From: an uncultured Alphaproteobacteria bacterium
Lineage (GTDB): Bacteria; Pseudomonadota; Alphaproteobacteria; CAWJRW01
Direction: 5' to 3'
NCBI GenBank assembly: GCA_963845385.1
Contig: CAWJRW010000006.1
Span: forward strand, 711,450-775,449
Length of the DNA: 64,000 bases
Shown: in pieces, positions 4,259 through 56,067 of the stretch
Numbering within the stretch: the stretch's first letter is position 1
How the letters are laid out: every line of letters starts with the position of its first letter
Program-made: the position numbers and the translations under genes
Notes under the pieces: model-generated
Databases searched by the model: none
What the model was told of the DNA's origin: nothing
The model's input: the letters and a program-made list of their open reading frames with translations, nothing else

Positions 4259-7044
<2,786 letters not shown>

Positions 7045-12965: not shown

Positions 12966-13454
12966 TCAAGCGGTTTGCACGCGCGGCACTTGCGCCGCGG
13001 GGCGCTTTGGGACGTCGAATTTCGTTCCCGTCATCAACATGTCGACGGTCTGGCCGTCGCTCGAGAACGGCAGAATGATCGCTTCGACAAACCAGTATTC
13101 GTTGTTGGTGAAGACCCGCTCACGAAGCTTGACCGACGGCGCGCGGTTTACGACGGCTTCGAGGAAGTGCTCGCGAATGAAGGCCTGATAGGTAGGGTTC
13201 GGCAGGGCATCCAGGCTCTTTCCTGTGAGGTCGAAGCCCAGATGCCCGGAGCTTGCGCTTGCGTGAATGCGGTAGTGAAAGCGCACCGGATCATAGAGAA
13301 CGTCGGTGATCGAGAGGTTCCCGAGGATGTATTTGAGGTCGAGCGGATCGAAATCGGCGCGCGCGGGAAATTCCCGCGCACCGCGCCAACGCCGCCAATC
13401 CTGATAGAGCCGCTGCAGGCTCGGCGATCTTATGTCCACCGCATGAACCCTCAT
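12966..13454 (-). CDS. PAS_5/DUF1457-like small protein, paralog D (~163 aa; likely start MRVHAVDIRSPSLQRL)
   Basis: LQRLYQDWRRWRGAREFPARADFDPLDLKYILGNLSITDVLYDPVRFHYRIHA...GFDLTGKSLD...ILPFSSDGQTVDML. Confidence 0.6.
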   Translation of the reverse strand: MRVHAVDIRSPSLQRLYQDWRRWRGAREFPARADFDPLDLKYILGNLSITDVLYDPVRFHYRIHASASSGHLGFDLTGKSLDALPNPTYQAFIREHFLEAVVNRAPSVKLRERVFTNNEYWFVEAIILPFSSDGQTVDMLMTGTKFDVPKRPAAQVPRVQTA

Positions 13455-13661
13455 GTCGCGGGCGAGCGATGGTTGGCCGAAGGCACTTGAAGATCTGTTA
13501 ACTGTCGGTGCCGAAGCCGTCGGCACGGCGCGGCGGGCCGAGACCAGGCCGCGCTGCACGGGCATGGCTGGGGCGCCAGGTGTCTGCCCAGGGCATGTGG
13601 CGCGCGGCGCCGCCTTCCTTGACCCCTTCCCGGGGCACGCCTACTTTCCGCCCCATCGATC

Positions 13662-13736
13662 GGGCCCGTAGCTCAGTGGCAGAGCATCTGACTTTTAATC
13701 AGAGGGTCGATGGTTCGAATCCATCCGGGCTCACCA
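13662..13736 (+). tRNA. tRNA-Lys (anticodon UUU), 75 nt including CCA
   Basis: GGGCCCGTAGCTCAGTGGCAGAGCA...anticodon stem TCTGA/TCAGA, loop CTTTTAA...GGTTCGAATCC T-loop...CGGGCTCACCA. Confidence 0.9.
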
Positions 13737-20913: not shown

Positions 20914-22364
20914 ATGATTCACCCCCATCCTCTCTATTTCGTTCACGGCATCGTCCTCGTGGCTTTGGGGGGCACCATGCTCCTGCCCGCGCTCGTCTCG
21001 GCGGCCTTGAGCGAGCCGGGGGCCGCGCCCTTTTTCCTGTCGTCCTTTGCCACGGTGAGCATCGGCGGTCTCTTCGTGCTCGTCGGACGCGGGCGCGAGG
21101 TCAGGCTGACGCGCAAAGAGGGCTTTCTGCTCACGGCGAGCGTTTGGCTCTCAGTCTCCGTCTTCGGGGCTTTGCCGATTGTGCTCACGGTTCCGAACAT
21201 CGATTTCGCTGCAGCGTTTTTCGAGTCGGTTGCGGGGATCACGACGACCGGCTCGACGGTGCTCATCGGCCTCGAGCACCTGCCCAAGGGCCTGCTCCTT
21301 TGGCGCGGGCTTCTGCAATGGCTCGGCGGCGCGGGCTTTGTCACCATGGCGCTCGTTTTGCTGCCATTTCTACAAATCGGCGGCATGCAGCTTTTCAGAA
21401 CGGAGTCATCAGACCGTTCCGAAAAGGTGTTGCCCAGCGCTCGGCAGATCGCCCTCGCGATCATAACCGCCTATGCGACGCTCACGGGCCTCTGTGCGCT
21501 TTCGTTTTGGATTGCGGGGATGAATGCGTTCGATGCCATCGTTCACGCGATGGGCGCGCTCGCCACGGGCGGTTTTGCGAATTATGACGCGTCGTTCGGC
21601 CAATTCCATTCGTATTGGATAAGGGCTATCGCCACCATATTCATGATAGCGGGTGCCACGTCGATGATCGTTGTTCGTGCGCTTGGGCCGCGGTGATTGG
21701 GTTTCAGTTTACCGCGACAGCCAAGTGCGGACGTTCCTCGGCGTGCTCGTTGTCGCGACCGTCGTGCTTGCGGGCTATCTCGTCGTTTCGGGACGCATGA
21801 CCGCAGCCGACAGCCTGAGCCACGCCGCCTTCAACGTCGTCTCGATCGTGACGACGACAGGCTTCGTCTCAACGGACTATGGGACATGGGGCAACTTCGC
21901 CGGAGGCCTGTTGTTTCTGCTCACTTTTGCGGGCGGTTGCACGGGCTCGACGTCGGGCGGGATCAAGATGTTCCGCTTCGAGATCCTTCATCGGCTGATA
22001 ACGCTTCATATGCGACGGCTCCTCAATCCGCGCGCCGTCGTGCCGGTCAAATATGCAGGCCGCCTTGTCGGCGAGGACGTGCTGCTGTCGGTGATGGCGT
22101 TTCTTGCTGGCCTATTTGGTCACGGTCGGTGTCATTGCGATCTGTCTTACGGTGCTCGGCCTCGATCCCACGACGAGCCTCACGGGCGCGGCCACCGCCG
22201 TCGGCAATGTGGGGCCTGGCCTCGGCCCCATTATCGGTCCGGCGGGCAATTTCGCCCCGCTCCCCGATGCGGCGAAGATCCTGCTCGCGGTCGGGATGCT
22301 CATGGGCCGCCTGGAATTCTTCACCCTGCTCGCCTTGTTGAGCCCGTCCTTTTGGCGCGCTTGA
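20914..22364 (+). CDS. trkH: Trk-type potassium transporter membrane subunit TrkH (copy 1), frame changes near 21690 and 22100
   Basis: GITTTGSTVL, GFVTMALVLLP, TTTGFVSTDY, GGCTGSTSGGIKMFRF, VGNVGPGLGPIIGP in three ORF-track frames. Confidence 0.75.
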
Positions 22365-26044: not shown

Positions 26045-26535
26045 GTCGAGGTCTCCTGACAGAGACAATACGCGCGAGGCGGCGGCACCGTCTACGGGTA
26101 GCGGCGCGGGTTTGGCGGCCTGCGCGGGTTCGTTCGCGGGAAGATCGGCGAGCAGCCCCGGGCGCGGCGTCTTGAGATTGGCGCGGCTCGCCTCGCGCAG
26201 GTCGCGTGCGATGACATTCTCGATCTCGGTGATCATGCCGGAGGCGACCTTGAGGCGTGTCGCCAAAAGCACGGGCTTATTCCACTCGTGGATGACGCCG
26301 AAGAAGCCGGCTTGGCCGCTCACGGGATCGGCGAGCTTAATGTTGAACGCGGTCGGGCCGCTCGTCGCGCTGACCCACAGACCGTCGCCCGCGGGAATTT
26401 GCGCGGCGAGGACGTCTCGGTACGCCTCGGGGCGGCATACTGGGACCCTCGATCCGAATGGTGGATGCATCCTGCGGGCGGCTGGCGGCTCTCGATGGCG
26501 CACTGGAGCGCCGCGAGTGTCAATCGGGAATCCAT
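26045..26535 (-). mobile_element. Decayed IS3-family transposase OrfB (integrase core) remnant, multi-frame
   Basis: RLTLAALQCAIESRQPPAGCIHHSDRGSQY (IS3 DDE signature) in frame 26320..26673; weak GFFGVIHEW (cf. ESFFGTLKTE) in the adjacent frame. Confidence 0.55.
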
Positions 26536-26539
26536 GAAG

Positions 26540-26652
26540 CGCGCCACCGCAGAGCCGGAAAGGTCGCCCTCACCGCCGTCATGCGCAAAATGCTCGTCAC
26601 CCTCAATGCCATGGCTCGTAATCATGAGCCCTGGAAACAGGCTAACCCTTGA
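26540..26652 (+). mobile_element. IS110-family transposase C-terminal fragment (~35 aa)
   Basis: RRAGKVALTAVMRKMLVTLNAMARNHEPW matches the conserved IS110 C-terminus (AGKP-KVALVAVMRKLL-LANALLR-W). Confidence 0.55.
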
Positions 26653-26752
26653 CTCACAACACGGTAGATCCAAAAATTGGTCTCACATCAATGAGGATCG
26701 GGCTCTACTCATCGCTGGATGAAAGAAAGGGCTCAGGTCAGTGCCATAGGCC

Positions 26753-27415
26753 TTGTTTAATAAAACCTCTTATTTTGGATCGCGTCCTTCGATGCAGCGT
26801 GAGGGTGGCATATGGTCGGTGTTGGGTGCTGCCTCGATCTATTCGTCGTTTCAGGATTTCCTGGGCGCTGACGCAGCGCGGCGGGCATTCGTCGCGCGAC
26901 ACGTTCGGCCGCACGCCGGCATGCGCATTCTCGATGTTGGTTGTGGCCCTTCCGACATATTTGCGCATCTGGATCAAGTGACCTATGTCGGCGTCGACCG
27001 ATCAAGCAATTATATCGCTGCGGCGAAGGCCAAGTTCGGCCATCGTGGCACATTCATCTGTGGCGATGTCACGGAGCTCAAACTTCCAGTTGACGAGAGA
27101 TTCGACGTGGTTCTTGCGATTGGCCTTCTACATCATTTGAGCGACGCAGAGGCGATATCGCTCATGTCCAGCCTAACCGCCTTGCTCTCGCTATCAGGAC
27201 GCTTCGTTACTGTTGATCCGGTGAAGGAGAACCAGCAGCATCCCATAGCCCGGCTTATGATTTCTCTTGATCGCGGGAAGAACGTGAGGACCAAAGAGCA
27301 ATATGTAAGCTTGCTTCGGTCGTCCTTTAGGACAGTCGAAGCCGCCGTTTATCGCGATCTCATGCGTATTCCCTATAGCCATTTGATCGCAGAGGCGCGC
27401 AGCTCCGGAGATTGA
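26753..27415 (+). CDS. Class I SAM-dependent methyltransferase (island gene 1)
   Basis: RILDVGCGPSD motif I; FDVVLAIGLLHHL; lower-GC codon usage. Confidence 0.75.
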   Translation: MFNKTSYFGSRPSMQREGGIWSVLGAASIYSSFQDFLGADAARRAFVARHVRPHAGMRILDVGCGPSDIFAHLDQVTYVGVDRSSNYIAAAKAKFGHRGTFICGDVTELKLPVDERFDVVLAIGLLHHLSDAEAISLMSSLTALLSLSGRFVTVDPVKENQQHPIARLMISLDRGKNVRTKEQYVSLLRSSFRTVEAAVYRDLMRIPYSHLIAEARSSGD

Positions 27416-27712
27416 TCATGAGACCCTCTCTTGCGGTCGCCGGGCGATGAAGCAAATCGCGATCATCCCCTCAAATTACATTCATTATTCTCGATGCCGT
27501 ACGGGACACGAAGAACGACTAGAGTAGTCGCAACCGTATTCCAACGGCCTCGGGCGGACTTTGGCTCACGATCCCGCAAGCGGGTGCGTCATGGTGGCGA
27601 TCCCTCCTATCCGCAGCTCCAGGCGGCTTTTGATCCCTATGTGAGCGTTCTCGACCAGCTGATGAATAAGGGCCCGGGAGCCCGGCGCAAAATGAAGTGT
27701 GGGTCTGGACCG

Positions 27713-28560
27713 TCACCCGGGAGCAAGATGGCTGAGGCGCACGCGCAACGGCGTCGCCCAGCGCGCGGGCCAGCGCCGCAGCAAGGCGAGCGCGCCTGTT
27801 GCACGGAAAATGCGGGCCGCCGCTACCAAACCGCGATGACGGCGCGCGAACTCTTCATCGACCAAGAGGCGCTCCAAGGCTTCGGCCATTACGCCTTGGT
27901 CGAAAGCGATCGAGAGGCCATTGCGTCGTGCCAGGGCACGCAAGCGCGACGCTGTCACGAAGTTTAGGCTCCGCCAAAGCTCATCCTTGCGCAGGTGCCG
28001 CGCCCAGGGCGTGCGTGCCGGTATGACCGGCAGGAGTAGAATGCCGTAGTGCGGTTCGTAGGGGACCTGGTAATTGGCGCAAGTGTAAATCATGACCCCG
28101 CCCGCAGCGAGGACGCCCGACATCGCCGCCATTGCTTCGTCGAGGGCGGCAATGTGCTCCAGCACATTGACGCTGAAGATGACGGAAAACCTGCCGTGCA
28201 GCTTGGGATCGAGGTCTTCGGCGCCAATGCGGTGAAGTTTCACTTGCGTCGCGCGAAGTCGCGCATGGACGGCTGCCATCAAAGGATGAATTCAGCGGGA
28301 AGCCGGTACCTTCCGGCTCGACCGCCTCGATTTCTACGCCTGCACGTGCCAGGAAGGCCGTAAAGAGTCCAATACCGGCGCCGACTTCGAGCACACGCCC
28401 GTCGAGCGGCACATTACGTAAGAGTTCTCACGCCGACCGGCAGTTCCGCGGGCGAAGATTCGAAGGTAGTAGGATGCGGTCGACGTGTCGCATCCGGCGT
28501 CGGCCGCACAGCCGGCCACAAAGGCGGGCGCGCCAATCTCAGTGAGGAAGTCTGCGACCT
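27713..28560 (-). CDS. Class I SAM-dependent methyltransferase (island), frame changes near 28285 and 28425. Start uncertain.
   Basis: RVLEVGAGIGLFTAFLARAGVEIEAVEPEG (motif I) in ORF 27981..28412, FSVIFSVNVLEHIAALDEAMAAMSGVLAAGGVMIY in ORF 27713..28282. Confidence 0.65.
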
Positions 28561-28646
28561 GCGCAGCCGAGACCCCTGCACTCATGGAGTTGTACGGTAC
28601 GGCAAACGGGACAACCGGATCACCGGCAAGGCCGAGCGCGCCACCC

Positions 28647-29342
28647 TCATGAAGCAATGCGGATTTGCGACCGTTTACCGCCAATCCGCGTGCCGCTTCT
28701 CAAATTGCTGTAATAGTGCTCGGTGAAGCCGGCGGCCTTCATCGGCGCGGCGATTTGTTCGATATCGTAAGCCACGCGATGGAGTTTCATTTCGGCACCG
28801 GTCCACACGGCGAATGCCGCTCGCGGATCGCCGTCGCGCGGTTGGCCGACCGAGCCCGGATTGCAGTACCACTTTTCGCCCAGTGACCAAAGGCCCTGAA
28901 CATGCGTGTGACCCGAGACGAAGATCGTGCCCTCACGCTCGGCGAAGTAATCCGGCGAAATCATGTTGATATATTCGTCAAGGGGGTCATTCCATCCGGC
29001 ATGCACCAGCGACAGCTCGCCAATTCGCAGCACACCGCAGTGTGACTTCGACAACCATGCCAAATTATCCGGGGTTATGACACGGCGTTGCCAATCGAGA
29101 CAGGTGTTCGCACTATTCGAACGCGGGCATGCTTGGCTCGAGATCAAATAATGGTCGTGATTTCCAAGCAGGTTTCGAATGCCGCGGCGGCGGAGCTCGT
29201 CGATGCATTCGTTGATCATGCAGTAATAGCCACCGACGTCGCCCAGGGAGATCGTCTCGTCAATGCCGAGCGCGTCGATGGCGCTTAGGACGGCCCGCAT
29301 CGCGGGATAATTCCCGTGGATGTCAGAGATGATCGCCATCAT
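28647..29342 (-). CDS. Calcineurin-like metallophosphoesterase (YfcE/MPP family)
   Basis: MMAIISDIHGN, LGDVGGYY, GNHDHY, GHTHV phosphoesterase motifs. Confidence 0.8.
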   Translation of the reverse strand: MMAIISDIHGNYPAMRAVLSAIDALGIDETISLGDVGGYYCMINECIDELRRRGIRNLLGNHDHYLISSQACPRSNSANTCLDWQRRVITPDNLAWLSKSHCGVLRIGELSLVHAGWNDPLDEYINMISPDYFAEREGTIFVSGHTHVQGLWSLGEKWYCNPGSVGQPRDGDPRAAFAVWTGAEMKLHRVAYDIEQIAAPMKAAGFTEHYYSNLRSGTRIGGKRSQIRIAS

Positions 29343-30294
29343 AGGAAACAATGTCCTCAATATAGCGTACGGCAGTGCCGCTTCGGATCGGGCGATCGTC
29401 CGGCAGGCGGCCGTGCAAATAGTAGTCGATGCAGGCCGCCGCTTCATTATAGCCAAAGGCGCAGCGAATGGAGGTCGCCGACGAAATCCGTGGATTGATT
29501 TCGAGCAAATAGGGCGTGTCGTCCTCGACCCGGAACTGGAAATTCGTCGGACCGAGAGGATGAAACGTCTGTGCGAGCTGATCGATCAGGCGCTGGAAGG
29601 GTTCCCCGGATACTGTCTTTGCCTTTGCCGTCGCGCCTTCGCCGCTGAGGCGGCGCTGCAAGGCCATGAGTTGACCGATGCCGCCCCGGCCATCCCCGAA
29701 GCCGCTTATCGTAAACTCGGCGTCATCGCGACCGACAATTCGCTGTGCCATCAGCGTTTGGCCGAACTCTGCGCCATGATAGATGAAGTCACGTTCATCG
29801 CGGATGCGCACGATTCCTTTGCCGGCATAACCGTGACGCGGCTTCAATAGAAATGGCAGGCCGAGGCTCTGTGCAAGGTCGGCGAAAGTGCCATCGATGC
29901 GGCTCGGAATGGCTGGGGCGCCGAGGCCGACCAAGGCTTGATGCATTCGCCATTTGTCGTCGGCGAGCTCTATGAGCGCCGGTGAGTTCAGCGCAATTCT
30001 CGCATCGTAACGCTGTGACGCCGCCGCCTGGCGCGCGAAAACGGACATGTCCTGCTCGATGCCCGGAATGACAAGATCGATCGCGTGCGTACTGATCACA
30101 TCGCGCAGGAAAGCGTCATAGCCCGGATCGCTGACGAGGCAAGATTGGACGAATTGATCGCACCAGTGCTGTCCGGCAGCATCCGCGAAGATGTCCATGC
30201 CGACAAGATAAGGAGCGGGCTTCAGCTGTTTCAGCGTGCGGAGAATGCCATAGCCAATGACCGCACCAACACCCGTGACGAGAATGCGGTTCAT
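29323..30294 (-). CDS. ATP-grasp domain ligase (carboxylate-amine ligase-like)
   Basis: LPFLLKPRHGYAGKGIVRI ... YLLEINPRISSA (ATP-grasp C-terminal motif); overlaps its neighbours at both ends. Confidence 0.75.
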   Translation of the reverse strand: MNRILVTGVGAVIGYGILRTLKQLKPAPYLVGMDIFADAAGQHWCDQFVQSCLVSDPGYDAFLRDVISTHAIDLVIPGIEQDMSVFARQAAASQRYDARIALNSPALIELADDKWRMHQALVGLGAPAIPSRIDGTFADLAQSLGLPFLLKPRHGYAGKGIVRIRDERDFIYHGAEFGQTLMAQRIVGRDDAEFTISGFGDGRGGIGQLMALQRRLSGEGATAKAKTVSGEPFQRLIDQLAQTFHPLGPTNFQFRVEDDTPYLLEINPRISSATSIRCAFGYNEAAACIDYYLHGRLPDDRPIRSGTAVRYIEDIVSYDGDHL

Positions 30295-31152
30295 GATGCG
30301 GCGCTTTGCTTTGCTGCTATCGCCCCGAAAATATCACGAAGGCTCCAGGGTTGAACGTCCAGATTAGTCCAGGTCGAAGTTGCGTCGGGAACATAAATTG
30401 ACTTCAGATCCGCTTTCGCGGGATCGCGGAGGACCTTGCCGCCTTTCTTGAATTGCGCCTGGGCAAGCTCGGCGATCTTGGTAATCGACATCCGGTCGGG
30501 TCCCGCACAGACAAACACACCCGCCTTGGTGTGCTGTACGATTGCGACAACGGCAGCCGCGACATCCGTGACTGAAACGAAATTGCGAATGGGATCGGCT
30601 TTCCCGTGAATTATGATGTCTCGACCGCTGGCTGCATGATCAACGATCGTCCAGAAAAGCGGCTGGTGGCGGCGACTAAGGCCGTCCACATCCACGATTT
30701 GACTGGGCAAGACGGTCGTGAGGCTCAGACCATTCCGTCCGCAAAGCGAACTCAAGGTTTTCGGCACCCTGCTGTTTGGACAAGCCGTAGGAGCCAAAAT
30801 ACTCATTCTCGGGATGATCGATGGCGAACAGACTCGAGACGAAGACGATATGTCGCGCGCCGACACGTAAGGCGACCTCGCCGACGAGGATGGCCCCGAG
30901 CGCGTTTATTTTCGCATTCTCACGCATCCCCGCAGGGCTATCGCCCAGAAATGAGGCGGCGCAGTGAATGACGGAGTCGACCTGCATTGTGCCGGTGTCA
31001 GGCGGCTCAAACGCTGAAAGATCGAGATAGAGGTCGTTGTCAGGATGGCGTCCAGCCGACCAGACGTGAGTGTCGACGGCCCTGAGCCGTACGGTAATGT
31101 GCTGCGCCAGCATCGACGATGCACCGACCACTAGGACGCTGCGCCTCTGCAT
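30291..31152 (-). CDS. NAD-dependent epimerase/dehydratase (SDR family), frame change near 30720-30760
   Basis: SVLVVGASSMLAQHITVRL Rossmann motif; YGLSKQQGE catalytic YxxxK; stop overlaps the ATP-grasp start (ATGA). Confidence 0.7.
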
Positions 31153-31378
31153 CCCGCCTTCCTCTGAAATTTTTCCTGCCCCCAACTTTGGTCAGGCATC
31201 ATGTGCTGCGCGATCTGCGGCGGCAAGAGCGCATGTGCGACGAGCTTTCATCGCGATAACCGCGAGAGTCGGGCAATCCCGTCCGTGCAAATCCGCGCCG
31301 CGTCCGAAACTGCCTTGCATCGGTGGCGAAGATATGCGAGTGGTCCGACGGTGATCCGGCTTTGCACATCGGCATGCA

Positions 31379-32353
31379 ATGGATGTCTCTGTCATCATAC
31401 CAACCTACCGGAACGCGCGCGTGTTGCTCGAGCTTGCGCGACGATTGGTGGACACACTTTCGGCATCCGTTGGCTCCTTCGAAATCATTCTAATCGACGA
31501 CGGAAATCGCGACAACACCTGGGCCGTGATCTCGGACTTGGCGGCCAAATATCCGCAAGTCAAAGGGATTCGCCTGTCGCGGAATTTCGGCCAGCATCCG
31601 GCCATCGCTGCCGGTTTCAAGGCGGCGCAAGGCCAGCGCATCGTCTTGATGGACGCCGATCTCGAAGATCGGCCGGAGGCCATTCCCGAACTCCTCGCTG
31701 GTCTCGATGGCGGCGTAGACATCGTGTTTACGGTGATTGCCAATCCCAACGAGCATTCCCGCCGTCGCATCACGTCGATGCTTTTTCGTGGGGCATTCTC
31801 TTATTTGTCGCCGATGGAATTCCCACCGAATGTCGGGACGCTGAGGGCCTTCACCCGTCAAGTCCTTGAAGCTATTCGACAATATAACGAATATAATGTA
31901 CTATATGGTCCTCTGATGTTTTACTTGGGGTTCAATTGCAAGTTCATTGAAGTCATGCGCGGCCCATCGGCGCTCGGCGGCAGCAGCTACAGCTTTCGGC
32001 GACGCCTCCGGCTCGCGTCAGCCACGCTCTTCAGTTACACGAATTTGCCGAACACCATTTTCCTTGTCGGGGGTGGTATTCTTCTTGGCTTGGCGCTGTT
32101 GTATATCTTGTTGATCCTCGGCCAGTACATTTTTTTCGGTCCTGTTGCGTCAGGTGGTTTCGTCTTTCTCGCGCTACTCGCATTGGGCGGGATAGCAGTC
32201 AACTTGATCGCTTTCGGCGTAATCGGCACCTATGTATACCGTGTCTACCAGGAGGTGTTGGGGAGACCAAGATATCATGTGATGGCCGTGACGGGGAGCA
32301 TGTCGACTGGACGCGGTCAAAATGCGAAAGGCTTTGAGGTTGACGGACAATAG
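31379..32353 (+). CDS. GT2 polyprenyl-phosphate glycosyltransferase (GtrB/ArnC/DPM1-like) with C-terminal TM helices
   Basis: VSVIIPTYRNAR ... IILIDDGNRDNT ... LMDADLEDRPE; two C-terminal hydrophobic helices. Confidence 0.8.
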   Translation: MDVSVIIPTYRNARVLLELARRLVDTLSASVGSFEIILIDDGNRDNTWAVISDLAAKYPQVKGIRLSRNFGQHPAIAAGFKAAQGQRIVLMDADLEDRPEAIPELLAGLDGGVDIVFTVIANPNEHSRRRITSMLFRGAFSYLSPMEFPPNVGTLRAFTRQVLEAIRQYNEYNVLYGPLMFYLGFNCKFIEVMRGPSALGGSSYSFRRRLRLASATLFSYTNLPNTIFLVGGGILLGLALLYILLILGQYIFFGPVASGGFVFLALLALGGIAVNLIAFGVIGTYVYRVYQEVLGRPRYHVMAVTGSMSTGRGQNAKGFEVDGQ

Positions 32354-33182
32354 CAAGGAATGGCGGGCGAAGGTTCTGGCAGCCAATCGTGAGGTCCACG
32401 GCAGGCTTGCCGATGTCTATGAAAAGACCGAACCTCATTTCCGCCCTGAGAATCAAAGCAAAGTAAAAGAACGCCTCGCTCGCATCAGTAAGCGCACAAG
32501 CGCCGAACGGCTCCTCGATATCGGTTGCGGCACAGGGTTTATACTGCGTCAGGCGGTCGGGGTCTTCAAGCGAATCGACGGCATCGATATCACACAGGAA
32601 ATGATCGCCCGCATTCCCGATCTCGGTCCGACCGTTCATGTGCAGTTGGCCGAAGCGGAGGCGCTGCCATTTCCGGATGCAACCTTCGATGTCGTTTCCG
32701 CCTATTCCGTCTTCGACCATCTGGTCGATTACCGCGTCACCTTGCGGGAAGTCGCGCGGGTCCTAAAGCCCGGAGGCATATTCTACGCCGATCTCATTCC
32801 GAACCGCTGTTTTTGGCAGGCGCTCGGCGCCCTGGATGCAAGCGCTGTCCCAACTCTCTCCGACATTGTCGAACGCGAATGGCGCATGGTTCATGAAAAC
32901 GATAAACGCGTCGAGGCGGAGTTCGGCGTCGACTCCGAGGCGTTCCGCAATGCCGAGCCCGGCAAGTTGGAGGGCGGCATCGATGCGGAAGAGGTGTGCG
33001 CCTCGGCGCGCAAGCTCGGATATTCGCAACCCGAATTTCATTACGATTGGTTCCTCGGCCAAGGCGCCGTCATGCACGGCCAATCGTTCGAGGAGGCGGC
33101 GGTCATCGAGACCTATCTCGAGCGCGTGACGCCGCTCTCTCGCCATCTCTTCAAATATATCTATTTCGTTCTCACCAAGTAG
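32322..33182 (+). CDS. Class I SAM-dependent methyltransferase (island)
   Basis: RLLDIGCGTGFILRQ motif I; FDVVSAYSVFDHL; VLKPGGIFY. Confidence 0.75.
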   Translation: MRKALRLTDNSKEWRAKVLAANREVHGRLADVYEKTEPHFRPENQSKVKERLARISKRTSAERLLDIGCGTGFILRQAVGVFKRIDGIDITQEMIARIPDLGPTVHVQLAEAEALPFPDATFDVVSAYSVFDHLVDYRVTLREVARVLKPGGIFYADLIPNRCFWQALGALDASAVPTLSDIVEREWRMVHENDKRVEAEFGVDSEAFRNAEPGKLEGGIDAEEVCASARKLGYSQPEFHYDWFLGQGAVMHGQSFEEAAVIETYLERVTPLSRHLFKYIYFVLTK

Positions 33183-33189
33183 GCATTCC

Positions 33190-33972
33190 ATGCCGACGGT
33201 GCCCTCGCCAACCCTTCTGAAAGAGTTCGATGAGATTGGTTTCACGATCATCAACAACATGATCTCGCCCGCCGAGGTCGCAGAGATGCGGCCGCTGCTG
33301 CAATCCTGTATCGATGCGGACATCGCCAATTGGCAGGGCAAGCCCGGCTATATCGATCACTGGATGGTGCATAACCTGATGGTTCGCGGCGAGCCCTTTC
33401 TACGCTTGCTCGAGAACCCGTCTCTGCATGCGTACCTCGAAGCGGGATTCTCCAAGAATGCGATCTTGTATGCCTATACGTCGTCCAGCATGCCGCCACA
33501 TGGCAGCAACTATTCGCGACGAATCCATGTCGATTGTCCGCGGGTGATCCCGGGATACCGAACGAATGTCGGGTTCCTCGTGGCGCTTGACGATTTCACG
33601 CTTGAGAACGGCGCCACATACGTGTTGCCCAAGTCGCAATGGCGCAGCGATCCGCCCTCGGAAGAAGAATTTCTAGCCAATGCCGTGCGCCTGATGCCCA
33701 AGTCGGGCGACGCCATCTTCTTCAACGCGCGGACTTGGCACATGGGCGGTCAGAACAATACGGACATTCCCCGGCACTCGGTAACGTTGAATATTTGCCG
33801 GCGCTACATGCGCCAGCGCTTCGATTACCCGCGCCTGGTGCCGCCCGGGCTTGTCGCAAAGCTCGGGCCTGTCGGCCGGCGTTTTCTGGGCTTCGAAGTG
33901 CGCGTACCGACAAGCCTTGAAGAGTACTACGTCTCACCCGAAGAGAGACTCTATTTGCCGGCGGAAGAATGA
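33190..33972 (+). CDS. Phytanoyl-CoA dioxygenase (PhyH)-family Fe(II)/2OG oxygenase
   Basis: HVDCPRVIPGYRTNVGFLVALDDFTLENGATYVLPKSQ ... ARTWHMGGQN. Confidence 0.75.
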   Translation: MPTVPSPTLLKEFDEIGFTIINNMISPAEVAEMRPLLQSCIDADIANWQGKPGYIDHWMVHNLMVRGEPFLRLLENPSLHAYLEAGFSKNAILYAYTSSSMPPHGSNYSRRIHVDCPRVIPGYRTNVGFLVALDDFTLENGATYVLPKSQWRSDPPSEEEFLANAVRLMPKSGDAIFFNARTWHMGGQNNTDIPRHSVTLNICRRYMRQRFDYPRLVPPGLVAKLGPVGRRFLGFEVRVPTSLEEYYVSPEERLYLPAEE

Positions 33973-34040
33973 AAGCGCGGCACCCCGTCACGCGTTCCTC
34001 GCATTTGCAGTCGCTTCGCAATCGAAGGAGAGCGCATTCT

Positions 34041-34852
34041 TGACCTATCTATGGCGCTTCTTGAAGCAGACACCACTCTCGATTCTCCTGTATCGCATCT
34101 TCACATACCCATTCCCGTATCGCATTGGTCTTGCGCGGTTGTGGTTCACCCTCCGGCCGCGAACGCGCCCTCACTACTACGCTTGCATGTTGGAGGCGGC
34201 GCTACTGGCTCGCGCGCTCGATCATCGGTCTATTTCCGTTCTTGAGTTTGGCGTTGCCAGCGGCAATGGCCTGCTGGCGATGGAGCGCTATGCCGAAAAA
34301 ATCCAGCGCCGCATTGGAATAGAGATCGCGCTCTACGGTTTTGACATGGGTGATCAAGGCGGGCTGCCGGCGACAACCGATCCGCGCGATATGCCTTACC
34401 TTTGGCCGCCAGGCGCTTACAAGATGGATTTCGCGCGGCTCAAAGCGCGACTGCGGCGCGCGGAGCTGCGGCTCGGCAATGTCGCCGAGACCGTGCCCGC
34501 CTTTGCCAAAGAAGCAATCGCGCCCATCGCAGCCGTTTTCATCGACGTCGACTACTACTCATCCACCATGGAGGTCTTGAAGCTTTTCGACCTTGCCAAG
34601 GGGCGGACCTTGCCGCGTGTGGTTTGCTACTTTGACGACGTCGATGTCTCCAACACGTTCAACGGCGAGCTCGCCGCCATCATTGGCTTCAATGCAAGTC
34701 ATTCCCATCTCAAGATCGCGCGCGTTGATAGCCACCACACGGCCGTCCTCTATGGCACCTTCAACAATCACGTGTTTCATCTTCATGATTTTGAACACCC
34801 GGCTTACAATCGATATATTCCCGGTGGCGTCGTCGAGGAATTGCCACTCTGA
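34041..34852 (+). CDS. TylF/MycF/CmcI-like (class I, family 3) O-methyltransferase; probable TTG start after AAGGAGA
   Basis: ISVLEFGVASGNGLLAM ... VFIDVDYYSSTMEVLKLF ... RVVCYFDDV resembles the macrocin/sugar O-methyltransferase family. Confidence 0.5.
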
Positions 34853-34891
34853 TCGCCGCCAAATGATTTTGGGGACGCAGGATGTCCCGCG

Positions 34892-35290
34892 TCAGCGTTC
34901 ATGAGACAGGTTGAGTGGTTTTGCTAAGAGTTTGACTTGAAACGATGGCATTGATTTCAAGCTCTTGCGAGCCGGCGCGTGATGAGCCGGATATGGGCGA
35001 TGAAGACCCAGGCGGCGGCGCTTGAGATGGTCGCTTCGAAGCCCTTGGCCAATCTGCGGCATCGGTGAAGAGATGACGCAACCACGGATAAAGCCTGCGG
35101 ATGGTGGTGAGCACGCCGGGGGCGCCGTCGCGGTCTTGGATATCGGCAGTATGCACAACCGCGCCGACAAGATGACCTTGCGTGTCGGTGACGATATGGC
35201 GCTTCGGCCCTTGATCTTCTTGCCCGCATCGAACCCGCGTGGGCCGCCGCTTTCCGTGGTCTTCACCGATTGGCTGTCGATCACACCTGC
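34892..35290 (-). mobile_element. 5'-truncated, frameshifted IS5-family (IS427/IS1031-like) transposase remnant spread over three frames
   Basis: IDSQSVKTTESGGPRGFDAGKKIKGR / KRHIVTDTQGHLVGAVVHTADIQDRDGAPGVL / NRCRRLAKGFE...IAHIRLITRRL correspond to successive conserved IS5 transposase blocks. Confidence 0.7.
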
Positions 35291-35631
35291 ACTGGGGCTC
35301 GGTCCCGTCCCGCCTTCTCACGCGCGGCCATGACGAGAGCGTGCGTAGGCGCTGCACGGTACGCGGCGGGGATAAGCATAAAAGGCGCGTGGCGGAAGTG
35401 CTCTAGCAAACGTCCAAGGTCCGCGACATTGCGCGGCAAGCCTTCTTCGCGCAAACGCGGAAGGGCGAGCTTCGCAAGGCATTTGTCGTAGTCCGCAACC
35501 TTGTCCCCGTCGCTGCCAAACAAGCGAAGCGCAAGGTCGGCGGCGATACTCTCTAGATCATCGGCAACATTGACGAGGTGGCGCGGAAGCTTGCGCGGGC
35601 TGTGTGTGAAACGCGATTGACGAGCGCTCAT
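35281..35631 (-). CDS. Hypothetical protein (116 aa), no recognised domain
   Basis: Intact ORF only; located between the IS5 remnant and tRNA-Val. Confidence 0.3.
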   Translation of the reverse strand: MSARQSRFTHSPRKLPRHLVNVADDLESIAADLALRLFGSDGDKVADYDKCLAKLALPRLREEGLPRNVADLGRLLEHFRHAPFMLIPAAYRAAPTHALVMAAREKAGRDRAPVQV

Positions 35632-35870
35632 AGCTGCCTCTCCTTCGGTTACTGTGACGGGAAGGCCAAGGCGACACGCTACGCCGCGCCCGGCCGTATC
35701 AGACGCAACAGGAACAAGGGCGGCACACTATCGGGGCCGCGCCGGTATCTCTTAAATAGGAGATATCAACTCTTATATAGTAGTTAAGGGGCAGGCAAGA
35801 AAAAGGCGCCCGGCCGGATCGGGGGCGCCTCTAACTTGACCATATCTCCTATATATGGGACGTTTCGGCC

Positions 35871-36071
35871 ATGCCGGGACCAAAGCCGCGATACACGGCA
35901 AGCTTCATCTTTCAGCTAGAGCCGCGCGACCTTGCGGCGCTCAAGGCGTGGGCCAGGGCGCATGACATGTCGGCTGCGGCGGTGGCCCGTCTTGCGGTGC
36001 GGGAATTTGTAAGTTCGGCCAAGCCTGGACGCCCAAAGGCCCGGAAGGGCAAGGCACCGGCTGGCAAGTAG
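35871..36071 (+). CDS. Small basic DNA-binding-like protein (66 aa), possibly ribbon-helix-helix
   Basis: RDLAALKAWARAHDMSAAAVARLAVREFV followed by a Lys/Arg-rich tail; inverted repeats upstream. Confidence 0.4.
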   Translation: MPGPKPRYTASFIFQLEPRDLAALKAWARAHDMSAAAVARLAVREFVSSAKPGRPKARKGKAPAGK

Positions 36072-36316: not shown

Positions 36317-36391
36317 TGGTGGGCGCGACAGGGTTTGAACCTGTGGCCCCTACGATGTGAACGTAGTGCTCTACCGCTGAGCTACGCGCCC
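36317..36391 (-). tRNA. tRNA-Val (anticodon CAC), 75 nt including CCA
   Basis: Reverse complement GGGCGCGTAGCTCAGCGGTAGAGCACTACGTTCACATCGTAGGGGCCACAGGTTCAAACCCTGTCGCGCCCACCA folds as a cloverleaf. Confidence 0.9.
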
Positions 36392-38271: not shown

Positions 38272-39680
38272 ATGCCCATCGAAATTCGCATGCCCGCGCT
38301 CTCGCCCACCATGGAGGAGGGCAAGCTCGCCAAGTGGCTGGTGAGCGAAGGCGACTCCGTCAAGGCCGGTGACGTCATCGCGGAGATCGAGACCGACAAG
38401 GCGACCATGGAGGTCGAAGCGGTCGACGAGGGGAGGCTGTCTAAGATTTTGGTACCCGAAGGCACGGAAGGTGTGAAAGTCAACGCGCCCATCGCGCTCT
38501 TGAACGGGAAGAAGAAGAAGAAGGAGTGTCCCCCTCACCCCGGCCCTCTCCCCAGGGGGAGAGGGAGCAGAAAGTTCGTGCGCCGAAAATTCCCTCTCCC
38601 CTGCGGGGAGAGGGTCAGGGTGAGGGGGTAAAGCCAAAGCCCGCTCAGCCCTCGACGCGCGCGCCACTCGTGGAGCCGGATGTTCCCGCCGGCACGCGCA
38701 TGGTGTCGATCACCGTGCGCGAAGCCTTGCGCGACGCCATGGCCGAGGAGATGCGCCGCGACGAGCGCGTCTTTCTCATGGGCGAGGAGGTGGCCGAGTA
38801 TCAGGGCGCCTACAAGGTGAGCCAGGGACTGCTCGAAGAGTTCGGCGCGCGGCGCGTCATCGACACGCCCATCACCGAGCACGGCTTCACCGGGCTCGGC
38901 ATCGGCACGGCCTTCGGCGGCTTGCGCCCCATCGTCGAGTTCATGACCTGGAACTTCGCCCTGCAAGCCATGGATCAGCTCGTCAACTCGGCCGCCAAGA
39001 CGCGCTACATGTCGGGCGGCCAGATGGCGTGCCCCATCGTCTTTCGCGGACCGAACGGACCGGCCGCGCGCGTCGGCGCACAGCACAGCCAGGATTTCTC
39101 CGCCTGGTTCGCACACATTCCGGGGCTCAAGGTGATAGCGCCTTACTCGGCGGCCGACGCCAAGGGTCTCCTCAAATCGGCGATCCGCGATCCCAATCCC
39201 GTGATCTTTCTCGAAAATGAAATCCTCTATGGCCGCTCTTTCGAGGTGCCGGATTTGCCCGACTATCTCGTGCCCATCGGCAAGGCCAAGATCGTGCGCG
39301 TTGGAGCCGACGTCACGCTCGTCGCCCATTCCATCGCCGTGGGCCTGGCGCTCGAGGCCGCCGAGGCGCTGGCGGGCGAGGGCATCGAGGCCGAGATCGT
39401 CGACTTGCGCACGCTTCGTCCGCTGGACAGCGCGACCGTCGTGCAGTCGGTGATGAAGACCAATCGCTGCGTAACGGTGGAGCAGGGCTGGCCCGTGGGC
39501 GGCATCGGCGCCGAGATCGCCGCGCGCGTCATGGAAGAAGCCTTCGATTACCTCGATGCGCCGGTGAAACGCGTGGCCGCGAAAGACGTGCCCTTGCCTT
39601 ACGCCGCCAATCTCGAAAAGCTCGCGCTGCCTTCGGTCGCCGACATCATCGAAGCGGCGAAAGCCGTGACCTATCGCTGA
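38272..39680 (+). CDS. pdhB: Pyruvate dehydrogenase E1 beta subunit with N-terminal lipoyl domain. The frame switches inside a GC-rich palindromic insert (38531-38627).
   Basis: Lipoyl domain [14 protein letters not shown] in frame 38272..38631; transketolase-like E1 beta ([26 protein letters not shown]...) in frame 38526..39680. Confidence 0.9.
38531..38627. repeat. Composite palindromic GC-rich repeat element: outer IR CCCCTCACCC/GGGTGAGGGG enclosing two CCCTCTCCCC-N2-3-GGGGAGAGGG hairpins
   Basis: Read directly from sequence; lies in the pdhB linker. Confidence 0.8.
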
Positions 39681-41417: not shown

Positions 41418-42822
41418 CATGGTGAGCGAAGCTTCGACCTCATCGTTCTCGGCTCGGGCCCCGGCGGCTATGTGGCGGCCATCCGCGCGGCCCAGCTCGG
41501 CATGAAGACCGCCATCGTCGAGCGCGAGAATCTGGGCGGCATCTGCCTCAACTGGGGCTGCATTCCGACCAAGGCGCTGCTGCGCTCCTCCGAGCTCTTT
41601 CACTTGATGCAGCGCGCAGGTGAATTCGGCTTGTCGGCTAAGGAGATCAGCTTCGATCCTGCCAAAGTGGTCGAGCGCTCGCGCAAGGTCGCCGCGCGGC
41701 TCTCGGACGGCATCAAGTTCCTGATGAGGAAGCACAAGATCGAGGTCGTCTGGGGCGAAGGCAGGCTCGAGGGGGCGGGCAAGCTGTCCGTCGACCAAGG
41801 ACGGCAAGACCGAAACGCTTGCCGCCAAGACACATCATTCTCGCCACGGGCGCCCGCGCGCGATCGCTGCCGGGGCTCGAAGGCCGATGGCAAAGCTCGT
41901 CTGGACCTATCGCGAAGCCATGGTGCCGGACATTTTTCCGAAGTCGCTGCTCGTCATCGGCTCGGGCGCCATCGGCATCGAGTTCGCGAGTTTCTTTCGC
42001 ACGCTGGGCGCCGAGGTGACGGTGGTGGAAATCCTCGATCGCATTCTGCCGGTCGAGGACGCCGAGATCTCGCAGCTCGCCGAGAAGGCTTTTCGCAAGC
42101 AGGGCATGACGATCCACACCGGCGCCAAAGTGGAGTCACTGTCGCGCGGAAAGGACTCCGTGAAGGCCGTCATCAAGACCAAGGACGGCAAGAGCGAGAC
42201 CAGGGAGTTTCAGCGCGCCATCCTCGCCGTCGGCATCACCGGCAACGTCGAGAACATCGGGCTTGAAAAGGCGGGCGTGAAAGTTGACAGAGGCCACATC
42301 GTGATCGACCAATGGGGCTCGACCGGCGTGCCCGGCCTCTATGCCATCGGCGACGTCGCGGGCCCGCCCTGGCTCGCGCACAAGGCGATGCACGAGGGCG
42401 TGATTTGCGTCGAGAAGATCGCGGGCGTCAAAGGCGTGCATCCCCTCGACACGTCCAAGATTCCCGGTTGCACGTATTCCTATCCGCAAGTGGCCTCCAT
42501 CGGCCTCACCGAAGCGCAAGCGAAGGAGAAGGGCATGGCCGTGAAAGTCGGGCGCTTTCCCTTCCTCGGCAACGGCAAGGCGATTGCGCTGGGCGAGCTC
42601 GAAGGCCTCGTCAAGACGGTGTTCGACGCCAAGACGGGCGAGCTCTTGGGCGCGCACATGATCGGCGCCGAAGTCACCGAGCTCATCCAGGGCTTCGCCA
42701 TCGCGCGTACGCTGGAATCCACAGAAGCCGAGCTCATGGCCACCATCTTCCCCCATCCCACGCTGTCGGAAATGATGCACGAGGCGGTCCTCGACGCTTA
42801 CGGCCGGGCGCTCCATATTTGA
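41418..42822 (+). CDS. lpdA: Dihydrolipoyl dehydrogenase (E3), at least three frame changes (near 41432, 41810, 41885)
   Basis: LGGICLNWGCIPTKALL, LLVIGSGAIGIEFASFF, HPTLSE; N-terminal FAD motif disrupted by a 1-nt deletion (EASTSSFSARAP where ASFDLIVLGSGPGG is expected). Confidence 0.9.
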
Positions 42823-43177: not shown

Positions 43178-44145
43178 ATGACCATCGTTTATGACCGCTT
43201 GAAGGACAATTCTGCGGCGCTCCGCCATCCCGAGAAACGCAATCGCGCGGAGACGCCGTCGCCGCCAAAGCCCGCCTGGCTGCGCGTGCGCGCGCCGTCT
43301 TCGCCCGGCTATTTTTCCACGCTCGCGCTCATGCGCGAGAGCCGGCTCGTCACGGTGTGCGAGGAGGCGGGCTGCCCCAACATCGGCGAATGCTGGAGCC
43401 AGGGTCACGCCACCATGATGATCATGGGCGACACCTGCACGCGGGCTTGCGCCTTCTGCAACGTCAAGACGGGATTGCCGGGGCCGCTCGACGCGGACGA
43501 GCCCCAACGCGTGGCGGAGGCCTTAGCGAAGCTCGGGCTTGCGCCACGTCGTCATCACGTCCGTGGATCGCGACGATCTCCCCGACGGCGGCGCGGGCCA
43601 CTTCGCCGCCGTTATCCGCGCCATTCGCAGGGCGGCGCCGGCGACGACGATCGAAGTGCTGACGCCGGATTTCCTGCGCAAAGCCGGGCGCGGTCGAGAC
43701 CGTGGTCGAAGCCCGGCCCGATGTCTTCAACCACAATCTCGAGACGGTGCCGCGCCTTTACCTTTCCGTCAGGCCCGGCGCGCGATACTTCGCCTCGCTC
43801 CGCCTCTTGCAGGAGGCCAAGGCGCTCGAGCCTTCGCTCTTCACCAAGTCGGGCCTGATGGTAGGGCTCGGCGAGAGCCGCGAGGAAGTGATGCAGGTGA
43901 TGGACGATTTGCGCGTGGCCGATGTCGACTTTCTCACCATCGGCCAATATCTGCAGCCGACGCGCAAGCACGCGGCCGTCCAGCGCTTCGTGACGCCCGA
44001 GGAATTTCAGGATCTCGAGCGCATCGCCCGCGGCAAAGGGTTTCTCATGGTATCCGCAAGCCCGCTCACGCGCTCGTCTTATCACGCGGGCGATGATTTC
44101 GCGCGCCTTGCCGCCTTGCGCGAGGCGGCCACGGCCCGCGTTTAA
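43178..44145 (+). CDS. lipA: Lipoyl synthase, frame changes near 43545 and 43690
   Basis: [27 protein letters not shown] radical-SAM motifs, then [12 protein letters not shown] and C-terminal [16 protein letters not shown] in other frames. Confidence 0.9.
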
Positions 44146-45926: not shown

Positions 45927-46415
45927 TTACAGCATGCGCAGGGCGAGCGCGAGGGCGGCCTCGACGGATTTCATGCGCACGACAGTGCGGCCGATGGCGC
46001 CGAAGCGGTGAACCTCGTGCGCCGTGGCGCGCGTCGCGGAGGCCGCGGCCAAATGCACGAGGCCGACGGGCTTTTCCTTGCTGCCGCCCGCAGGGCCCGC
46101 AATTCCCGTGACGGCGAGAGCGAGATCGGCGTGGGCACGCGCGCGCGCGCCTTCCGCCATGGCGCGCGCCACGGCTTCCGAGACCGCGCCATGACGCGCG
46201 AGCAAATCCTTCGGCACGCCGAGAAGGTCTTGCTTTGCTTCATTCGCGTAGCTCACGAAACCGAATTCGAAGACGTCGGAGGCGCCGGCAATCTCGGTAA
46301 GACACGCGGCCAGAAGCCCGCCCGTGCAGGACTTCGCGGTCGTGATCTTGATGCCTTGCGCCTTCGCCTTGGCGATCAAGTCCTCGGCCTCGCGCAGCAG
46401 GGGCGGGGGAAACAT
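45927..46415 (-). CDS. CinA-family protein / nicotinamide-nucleotide amidohydrolase PncC-like
   Basis: [39 protein letters not shown] ... [24 protein letters not shown]. Confidence 0.75.
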
Positions 46416-46420
46416 GGCGC

Positions 46421-46879
46421 TCAGATCACCTTTTCGATGAGCCAATAGGTTCCGATAGCTGCGAGTGCCGCGGCAAGATCGTCGACCATGATGCCGATGC
46501 TGCCCGGCACGCGCCGATTGAGCCAGGAGATCGGCCAAGGTTTTGCGATGTCGAAAACGCGAAAGAGCACAAAACCTGCGGCGGCGCCGATCTCGTCGAG
46601 GGGTACGGCTACGAAGACGAGCCACATGCCTGCGACTTCGTCGATGACCACCTCGCTGGGGTCCGCGCGCTTGACGGCCTGCGCATAAGCGCCGCTCGCC
46701 CAGAGGCCCGCCGCGCAAGCAAGAACGACTGCCACGGCGAGCGCCAAGCGGCCGCCAAGCCGCTCGATCGGTATGGCAAGCAGGAGAGCCGCGAGCGAAC
46801 CCCAGGTTCCCGGTCCCGGCCGCAAACGGCCGACGGGTCCGAACGTGGCGATCTCGCGCTGCAGTTTAGCGCGCGTCAT
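46421..46879 (-). CDS. pgpA: Phosphatidylglycerophosphatase A
   Basis: [25 protein letters not shown] ... [12 protein letters not shown] ... [12 protein letters not shown]. Confidence 0.8.

Positions 46880-49373: not shown

Positions 49374-49374
<1 letters not shown>
48283..49374 (+). CDS. ntrB: Nitrogen regulation sensor histidine kinase NtrB, frame changes near 48400 and 49030
   Basis: H-box [18 protein letters not shown]; N-box [10 protein letters not shown]; G-box GTGLGLALV. Confidence 0.88.
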
Positions 49375-50827
<1,453 letters not shown>

Positions 50828-56053: not shown

Positions 56054-56067
56054 GGCACGGCGCGACT

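Follow-up and report, generated by a model that had tools for sequence, protein, structure and literature searches.

Gene content and composition of the locus

A window of 64,000 nucleotides (64 kb) from an uncultured alphaproteobacterium (contig CAWJRW010000006.1, positions 711,450 to 775,449) was analysed around a segment of low GC content, positions 26650-34870 of the window, which carries two divergent groups of genes for methyltransferases and other putative sugar-tailoring enzymes, with debris of insertion sequences (ISs) at its borders. A first-pass annotation, made from the sequence alone, had described this segment as a genomic island. The features found are collected in Table 1, and all coordinates are those of the window. 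The ATP-grasp enzyme, the metallophosphoesterase, the short-chain dehydrogenase/reductase (SDR), the GtrB/ArnC-like glycosyltransferase of family GT2 and the PhyH-family dioxygenase were all present as that annotation had named them, and the open reading frame (ORF) coordinates agree with its divergent layout around an intergenic region of 226 bp. It had also counted four to five class I S-adenosylmethionine (SAM) methyltransferases; three of these are solid, while a fourth, of the CalS11/TylF type, is recognised at profile level only.

Table 1. Features of the low-GC segment and of its borders
Feature	Position	Strand	Evidence
IS3-family transposase fragment (integrase core, rve)	about 26431-26559	-	Pfam rve E=4e-6
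IS110-family transposase C-terminal scrap, 25 aa	26551-26625	+	blastn, tblastn
Class I SAM methyltransferase, MT206 family	26753-27415	+	Pfam Methyltransf_25/31/11/12
WbqC-family gene remnant, pieces in three frames	27450-27706	+	tblastn, Pfam WbqC
Class I SAM methyltransferase, L100 MT295 family, frame-broken	27713-28445	-	tblastn, Pfam Methyltransf_23
Metallophosphoesterase, YfcE-like	28647-29342	-	Pfam Metallophos_2 E=2.7e-16
ATP-grasp enzyme (ATPgrasp_Ter / CPS-like family)	29323-30294	-	Pfam PF15632 E=1.7e-12
SDR (NAD-dependent epimerase/dehydratase family)	30312-31152	-	Pfam Epimerase, tblastn
Divergent intergenic region, SDR versus GT2 operons	31153-31378		ORF coordinates
GtrB/ArnC-like GT2 polyprenyl-phosphate glycosyltransferase, C-terminal membrane anchor	31379-32353	+	Pfam Glycos_transf_2 E=1.4e-29
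UbiE-like class I SAM methyltransferase MT273	32322-33182	+	Pfam Methyltransf_11 E=1.9e-23
PhyH-family Fe(II)/2-oxoglutarate dioxygenase	33190-33972	+	Pfam PhyH E=2e-17
CalS11/TylF-like putative sugar O-methyltransferase, 270 aa	34040-34852	+	family profile
IS5-family transposase remnant	34960-35383	-	blastn, tblastn, Pfam DDE_Tnp_1
Small ORF of 66 aa, candidate ribbon-helix-helix regulator by eye	35871-36071	+	ORF scan
tRNA-Val(CAC)	36317-36391	-	ARAGORN

The segment 26650-34870 is compositionally foreign. Its GC content is 57.9%, against 64.5% at positions 1-26000 and 65.1% at positions 36500-64000, and in a sliding 8.2-kb scan of the whole 64 kb the GC minimum began at 26601, so that the AT-richer segment picked out at first pass is indeed the lowest 8.2 kb of the window. 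The flanks, then put at about 68% GC, measure about 65%; of two AT-rich strings quoted as examples, one is exact (31880-31908), while the other (26756-26778) contains one mismatch. The mean GC content at third codon positions (GC3) is 0.67 for 10 island coding segments, compared to 0.80 (standard deviation 0.04) for 37 flanking ORFs (Mann-Whitney P = 2.4e-6); GC and codon usage, which the first-pass annotation had proposed to plot as a check, are therefore non-uniform across the borders. The tetranucleotide distance from the window average has its maximum at 28-36 kb.

Homologous loci are designated below by an L and a number. The methyltransferase nearest to the left border is 40% identical to the MT206 protein of L085 and 44% identical to its counterpart in L118, both of which lie within homologous cassettes. 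The WbqC remnant that follows had been overlooked at first pass: WbqC residues 6-18, 27-63 and 192-232 are packed into 257 nt (tblastn), about 134 internal residues being deleted, and positions 188-216 of the 218 in the Pfam WbqC model are matched. In the frame-broken methyltransferase next to it, residues 47-105 of the L100 homologue are found in frame -3, with an in-frame stop, and residues 119-290 in frame -1, at 50% identity; positions 23-54 and 73-161 of Pfam Methyltransf_23 likewise lie on separate frames. The SDR gene is broken near 30750, with residues 9-141 of the L001 SDR in frame -2 and residues 134-282 in frame -3; Pfam Epimerase matches both halves, and the YGLSK motif is readable. 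The frame breaks of these two genes had not been noted before either.

Between them lie the metallophosphoesterase, which is 62%, 57% and 58% identical to its homologues in L001, L002 and L118, respectively, and the ATP-grasp gene. The two genes overlap by 20 nt, and such an overlap is also present in the L001 and L002 homologues. The ATP-grasp protein scores 210.7 bits against NCBIfam PRK12767.1-1, for which the cut-off is 218. Its AlphaFold2 model (predicted local distance difference test, pLDDT, 89) has as closest folds 2pn1, an uncharacterised CPS-like protein, PurK, PurT and biotin carboxylase, and sequence and fold searches of the PDB returned CPS, PurK, PurT and biotin carboxylase only. 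Within the divergent intergenic region no consensus sigma-70 site was present, and a scan for promoters and terminators gave counts not above those of shuffled sequence.

On the other arm, residues 2-305 of the GT2 match, over the full length, the GtrB structure 5ekp (E = 2.8e-44) and ArnC (E = 1.6e-40); NCBIfam PgfS and ArnC are also matched at full length, and hydrophobic segments lie at residues 223-280. The earlier assignment to polyprenyl-phosphate glycosyltransferases of the GtrB/ArnC type is borne out by these matches. The methyltransferase MT273 is 53-57% identical to methyltransferases encoded directly upstream of PhyH in L085, L086 and L088. For the last gene of this arm, the start was set from a 270-aa database protein (P0241). 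The Pfam Methyltransf_24 match scores 19.5 bits, under the cut-off of 26.3, and the single sequence gave no PDB match; a family profile built from 26 sequences (A2) matched the TDP-rhamnose 3'-O-methyltransferase CalS11 (E = 1.5e-8, 115 positions). A homologue 55% identical to this protein is encoded within a cluster of WbqC, methyltransferase, DegT and GT2 genes. In all, seven genes of the island extend over the full length of their homologues.

A recurrent sugar-tailoring cassette

The gene set had been regarded as idiosyncratic at first pass. This view is not supported, as nearly every gene belongs to a recurrent cassette found on many metagenomic loci and in flagellar regions of Pseudomonas; the glycan-tailoring character of the enzymes, including the full-length GtrB/ArnC-type GT2, stands. 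The ATP-grasp protein has 2936 homologues below E = 1e-5, the nearest of which, apart from an identical protein, is 62% identical. The best 120 matches are mostly about 50% identical, and those with a name come from Pseudomonas, Limisphaerales, Desulfuromonadales and Isosphaeraceae. A 35-kb metagenomic contig carries, in this order, WbqC, GT2, methyltransferase, SDR, ATP-grasp, metallophosphoesterase, methyltransferase and a polytopic membrane protein, and in Pseudomonas sp. Z4-7 the genes for WbqC, a GT2 of 1180 aa, methyltransferase, SDR, ATP-grasp, metallophosphoesterase and DegT lie directly upstream of flgF-flgG-flgH-flgI-flgJ-flgK-fliC.

Metagenome contigs were scanned with the ATP-grasp profile, which yielded 80 loci, and the partner genes were counted on the 43 loci of at least 8 kb. 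The metallophosphoesterase was directly downstream of the ATP-grasp gene on 42 of the 43. DegT accompanied it on 36 loci, an upstream methyltransferase (MT1) on 32, and the SDR and WbqC on 30 each; a small GtrB-like GT2 was present on 23 loci and the 1180-aa glycosyltransferase on 10. As defined by these comparisons of sequence, the cassette comprises WbqC, DegT, methyltransferases, SDR, ATP-grasp and metallophosphoesterase, to which a methyltransferase-PhyH pair may be added. In the window, SDR, ATP-grasp and metallophosphoesterase genes are contiguous on the minus strand (31152 to 28647), an arrangement encountered in 30 to 42 of the 43 loci, and this block is 41-62% identical to that of L001.

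The PhyH homologues are 60-71% identical, and in the loci examined they always follow a UbiE-like MT273, in the company of WbqC, DegT and a GNAT acetyltransferase. In L085, which has DegT, GT2, methyltransferase and PhyH together with a divergent methyltransferase-WbqC arm, the identities to the window proteins are 53% for GT2, 57% for the methyltransferase and 67% for PhyH. Both modules, that is, the ATP-grasp block and the MT273/PhyH pair, occur in one cluster in L107, L117, L118, L126 and L140. One strand of L118 encodes a 696-aa membrane protein with 14 hydrophobic segments, two methyltransferases and DegT, and the other encodes MT273, GtrB, MT1, SDR, ATP-grasp, metallophosphoesterase, PhyH and WbqC; a FabG-like SDR and mutS border the cluster on the side of the latter strand. 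Seven window genes and the WbqC scraps have counterparts in L118 at 27-59% identity, and the window proteins are 40-67% identical to their counterparts in L118, L085 and L001. The SDR block of the window is inverted relative to GT2 and lies at the usual place of MT1. Gene content and order mark the island as a partial and rearranged version of the recurrent cassette.

The cassette comes in two versions with respect to delivery: one with a small GtrB-like GT2 and polytopic membrane proteins that belong to no Pfam family (L085 4526-4915 and 10527-14308; L001 7902-9650; L118 1298-3388), the other with large soluble glycosyltransferases of 634-1180 aa (L002 4843-8385; L086 2554-4458; L088 4426-6330), with flagellar neighbours in L002 and L086. 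The window copy represents the undecaprenyl-phosphate version.

The plasmid collection yielded no copy of the cassette; the ATP-grasp homologues in it are full length and only 28-31% identical, on 73 records of Sinorhizobium plasmids (megaplasmids). On one of these records (CP050561.1, 1579973-1580923) an annotated ATP-grasp protein and an annotated histidinol-phosphatase both overlap the match, and may be an analogue of the ATP-grasp/phosphoesterase pair. The literature on WbqC, and on ATP-grasp or phytanoyl-CoA dioxygenase in flagellin glycosylation, yielded passing mentions and no functional data.

Parts missing from the window copy

Reference cassette proteins were used as tblastn queries on the window or on the segment 25-36.5 kb, and no match was obtained for DegT, MT1, MT2, the small multi-span protein or the polytopic membrane protein. 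As for a GtrA/ArnEF-like flippase and a GtrC/ArnT-like transferase, there was no tblastn trace of the L085 proteins unk129, unk563 and unk626, of L001 unk582 or of the 696-aa protein of L118, small and polytopic membrane proteins that do occur in homologous clusters. WbqC is present as the scraps at 27450-27706 only, and no intact copy lies in the window cluster. An enzyme of the GtrB/ArnC type requires a flippase and a transferase at the periplasmic face, and the sugar chemistry presumably requires an aminotransferase. As aminotransferase, flippase and transferase are all missing, the pathway as seen here is incomplete; either genes at another place in the genome supply the absent steps, or it does not operate.

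Frame breaks and the question of decay

Missing genes and broken frames raise another explanation, namely that the cluster is a decaying, non-functional relic, in which the SDR, one methyltransferase and WbqC are pseudogenes, and that the island is being lost. The absence of DegT, MT1 and the membrane partners is consistent with it, and so are the internal deletion in WbqC, the broken frames of the SDR gene and of the methyltransferase gene at 27713-28445, and the degraded state of the IS elements at the borders. The frame breaks lose their weight when the rest of the window is considered. Conserved housekeeping genes are broken at an equal or higher rate: at least 3 breaks in 2.6 kb of gyrA (4399-7044), 1 in pdhB (38272-39677), 1 in lpdA (41424-42819) and 2 in lipA (43178-44100). 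A full-length, divergent trkH paralogue (20932-22358) has 2 breaks, and one further conserved gene is split between frames at 46252-46705. The frame-broken housekeeping genes compared are about 56-82% identical to Parvibaculaceae proteins. Conserved genes have about one break in every 2 kb (roughly 0.5 per kb), compared to 3 breaks in 8.1 kb of island. The small frameshifts of the island are thus most simply explained as indel errors of the assembly, and those in the SDR and the methyltransferase are probably assembly errors and not decay. We therefore dropped the pseudogene reading of these two genes; with many small indel errors in the assembly, pseudogene calls in the window are unsafe, and small frameshifts carry no biological weight.

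Indel errors do not explain the deletion of 400 nt in WbqC, the deletions in the IS elements or the missing genes. Since seven island genes are full length, we nevertheless regard the relic as an unlikely description of the cluster.

Two further observations concern the broken frames. In pdhB, a 111-nt GC-rich palindromic element (CCCCCTCACCCC...GGGGAGAGGG...), present as a single copy in the window, separates the lipoyl domain from the E1-beta domain at 38520-38630, where the frame of the gene changes. At 49074-50827, a histidine-kinase ATPase and a receiver domain share one ORF, and the sigma-54 AAA domain continues in another frame; this ntrB/ntrC boundary was probably garbled by the same indel errors.

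Borders and probable origin of the island

The first-pass annotation had placed decayed IS elements on both sides of the island, and they were found there. At the left border, the IS3 scrap directly adjoins the C-terminal scrap of an IS110 transposase. The rve match of the former covers residues 39-81 of ORF 26320-26673 on the minus strand, with 27.5 bits, under the gathering score of 32.6; the latter matches Roseateles IS110 genes in blastn and residues 286-310 of 317 in tblastn (64% identity, E = 2e-4). At the right border, the IS5 remnant has 77% nucleotide identity to an IS5 element of Bradyrhizobium (blastn) and is spread over three frames: the tblastn pieces cover residues 82-142, 135-190 and 238-274, residues 191-237 being lost by an internal deletion of 47 aa, and the first 81 residues are missing as well. 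All three border elements are degraded and none is functional. An imperfect inverted repeat of 31 nt links 26114-26144 with the IS5 remnant, and a composite transposon was considered. It was rejected, as an intact IS5 transposase used as tblastn query gave no match at the left border; in the absence of IS5 coding similarity on the left, the repeat is treated as a chance event.

The tRNA-Val(CAC) gene reported about 1 kb past the right border is there as well (ARAGORN), with its 3' end directed toward the island. A chimeric ORF of 116 aa lies between the IS5 remnant and this gene. The 66-aa ORF, in an AT-rich patch, is preceded by an inverted repeat of 19 nt (35748-35766 / 35842-35860); as it has no Pfam match, the ribbon-helix-helix reading was made by eye only. 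The stretch 35748-36071 may be a relic of a mobile or integrated element.

Taken together, in the reading we find probable, the region 26.6-35.4 kb was acquired by horizontal transfer and is an incomplete version, with rearranged genes, of a sugar-tailoring cassette that is widespread and biochemically uncharacterised. The genomic island of the first-pass annotation is hence retained as to foreign composition and IS debris near a tRNA gene; integration targeted to the tRNA is unsupported, because neither an integrase nor a repeat of the tRNA 3' end was found.

Several points weigh against the reading adopted here. The evidence for acquisition consists of composition and IS debris, and glycan loci can remain low in GC over long periods. 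No ORF at 35.4-36.3 kb encodes an integrase; the window contains neither a further copy of the tRNA-Val 3' end nor a repeat of this gene longer than 12 nt, and no convincing flanking direct repeat or target-site duplication was found. Among the species-representative genomes, the best FtsB match is 47% (Parvibaculum), so that there is no close relative for comparison. The cassette is mosaic, as the window GT2 shares just 27% identity with its counterparts in L001 and L118, compared to 53% with that in L085. If DegT and the membrane partners were encoded elsewhere in the genome, as could be the case, 'incomplete' would be wrong in functional terms. Lastly, no enzyme of the cassette has been characterised, and substrate, order of steps and acceptor are all deduced.

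These points lend something to another explanation, in which the cluster has long resided in this genome as a native locus for a surface polysaccharide, low GC being usual for glycan loci and the IS scraps incidental. O-antigen and capsule loci often have a lower GC content than their genomes, no attachment site or integrase was found, and the whole left arm of the window is variable: to the right of ftsB, pdhA, pdhB, pdhC and five more ORFs, up to about 44.6 kb, are syntenic in 44 to 68 of the 80 loci compared around ftsB, while the ORFs tested at 10-35.6 kb are absent from the surroundings of ftsB in every one of them, and nothing left of ftsB is syntenic in any relative. At such evolutionary distance, this break of synteny at ftsB and tRNA-Val is weak evidence. 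Debris of three IS families exactly at both compositional borders is not what a native locus would lead one to expect; the nearest homologues are only 57-71% identical, the named ones being from unrelated groups, and the cassette is rearranged and lacks parts carried elsewhere. We judge a native locus to be improbable.

Even less probable in our view is a flagellin glycosylation island, like the cassettes near flagellar genes in Pseudomonas (sp. Z4-7 and related contigs; P. putida ITEM 17297, where the same locus adjoins flgL, PMC7932912) and on metagenomic contigs (the 10 loci of the 1180-aa glycosyltransferase type, 3 of them with flgF/G visible, and L086, where MT-PhyH-WbqC adjoins flagellar hook genes), since the window GT2 is a membrane-anchored GtrB/ArnC-type enzyme and not a large soluble glycosyltransferase, no match to the 1180-aa or 634-aa glycosyltransferases was obtained, no flagellar family was seen among the ORFs scanned in the 64-kb window, and cassettes with a small GT2 carry polytopic membrane proteins instead.

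The flanks offer two more observations. The divergent trkH mentioned above, which lies 4 kb left of the island and adjoins a GT4 glycosyltransferase gene, is a second copy, 30-41% identical to the canonical trkH after trkA (54677-57552); the stretch 19-26 kb may likewise be accessory. Just left of tRNA-Lys(UUU) (13662-13736), the minus strand encodes two paralogues with a PAS_5 domain (11108-11587 and 12966-13565).

Proposed function of the cassette

The full cassette consists of DegT, WbqC and two modules, a contiguous block of methyltransferase, SDR, ATP-grasp and metallophosphoesterase and a methyltransferase-PhyH pair, extra methyltransferases being frequent. The likely function is the tailoring of an amino-deoxy sugar and its loading on undecaprenyl phosphate by the GtrB/ArnC-like enzyme. 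The substrate would be a nucleotide-activated amino-deoxy-hexose made by DegT. The ATP-grasp enzyme, which is PurT/PurK-like, would N-modify the amino group with a small acid, the SDR would reduce or epimerise the sugar, the methyltransferases would O- or N-methylate it and PhyH would hydroxylate it. The tailored sugar would then be transferred by GT2 to undecaprenyl phosphate and delivered, on the periplasmic side, to the lipopolysaccharide or another envelope glycan. The product may leave by one of two routes: through GtrB/ArnC-like loading on undecaprenyl phosphate, with the polytopic membrane proteins, or through a very large soluble glycosyltransferase where the cassette adjoins flagellar genes.

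The first-pass annotation had attributed to the ATP-grasp enzyme the amidation of a uronate. No support was obtained for this: no UDP-sugar dehydrogenase was seen in the neighbourhoods of the 43 loci, the folds are those of PurK, PurT and biotin carboxylase, and the association with DegT, on 36 of these loci, points to an amino-sugar substrate. A bolder proposal, which we put forward tentatively and with low confidence, is that the cassette makes an undescribed modification, in which the ATP-grasp enzyme, in place of a folate- or acyl-CoA-dependent transferase, N-formylates, N-carboxylates or N-acylates the amino-deoxy sugar, which is then routed to undecaprenyl phosphate or to flagellin; the window would hold a partial copy in a deep-branching alphaproteobacterium.

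For the host genome, the locus is one more acquired, incomplete surface-glycan locus in an error-rich assembly, and a fairly ordinary island. Of greater use is that a recurrent cassette of 8 to 11 genes could be defined, which many environmental bacteria possess and which is also present in flagellar regions of Pseudomonas; it is this cassette family, rather than the window copy, that merits follow-up. Its presence in cultured Pseudomonas isolates makes it a feasible target for sugar biochemistry, by mass spectrometry of flagellin and by knock-outs. It may explain unassigned glycan decorations that affect recognition by phages, the immune system or plants.

Comparison with known systems

The viosamine island of Pseudomonas syringae and the a-type flagellin glycosylation island of P. 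aeruginosa also rely on aminotransferase-based tailoring of a 4-amino-4,6-dideoxyhexose, with methyl and acyl or hydroxyl decoration, encoded at a variable, island-like locus. They use acyl-carrier and ketoacyl enzymes (vioR, vioS) and acetyltransferases. To our knowledge they contain no ATP-grasp/metallophosphoesterase pair and no PhyH, and by this description they are set apart from the cassette. The ATP-grasp amidoligases of the Campylobacter jejuni capsule, which form glucuronamide, share with the window an ATP-grasp gene inside a surface-glycan cluster. They differ in that the window has neither a uronate-forming dehydrogenase nor amine-donor genes, and the frequent DegT partner and the PurK, PurT and biotin carboxylase folds appear to set the cassette enzyme apart.

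With GtrABC and ArnBCADTEF, the common element is a GT2 that matches GtrB and ArnC over its full length (E = 1e-40 to 1e-44) and is of the type that links a sugar to undecaprenyl phosphate. Complete cassettes share more with Arn, as they possess a DegT of the ArnB family, an SDR, and small and polytopic membrane proteins, a set that parallels the logic of ArnB, ArnA, ArnC, ArnE/F and ArnT. The window, in contrast, lacks a GtrA/ArnEF flippase and a GtrC/ArnT transferase; in place of the ArnA formyltransferase and the ArnD deformylase there are the PurT/PurK-like ATP-grasp and the metallophosphoesterase, and the several methyltransferases and the PhyH dioxygenase are without counterpart in either system.

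The closest described counterpart is an unnamed locus near flgL in P. putida ITEM 17297, with RffA, metallophosphoesterase, CPS-like ATP-grasp, epimerase, methyltransferase, WbqC and glycosyltransferase, to which no function was assigned (PMC7932912). Compared to this Pseudomonas flagellar-region locus, the window has a small, membrane-bound GT2 of the GtrB/ArnC type and not a soluble glycosyltransferase of 1180 aa, has no DegT and no flagellar neighbours, adds the MT-PhyH pair and the CalS11-like methyltransferase, and shows an inverted block order. The two share an orthologous SDR/ATP-grasp/metallophosphoesterase block, at roughly 30-57% identity, the overlap between the ATP-grasp and phosphoesterase genes, and the association with WbqC and methyltransferases.

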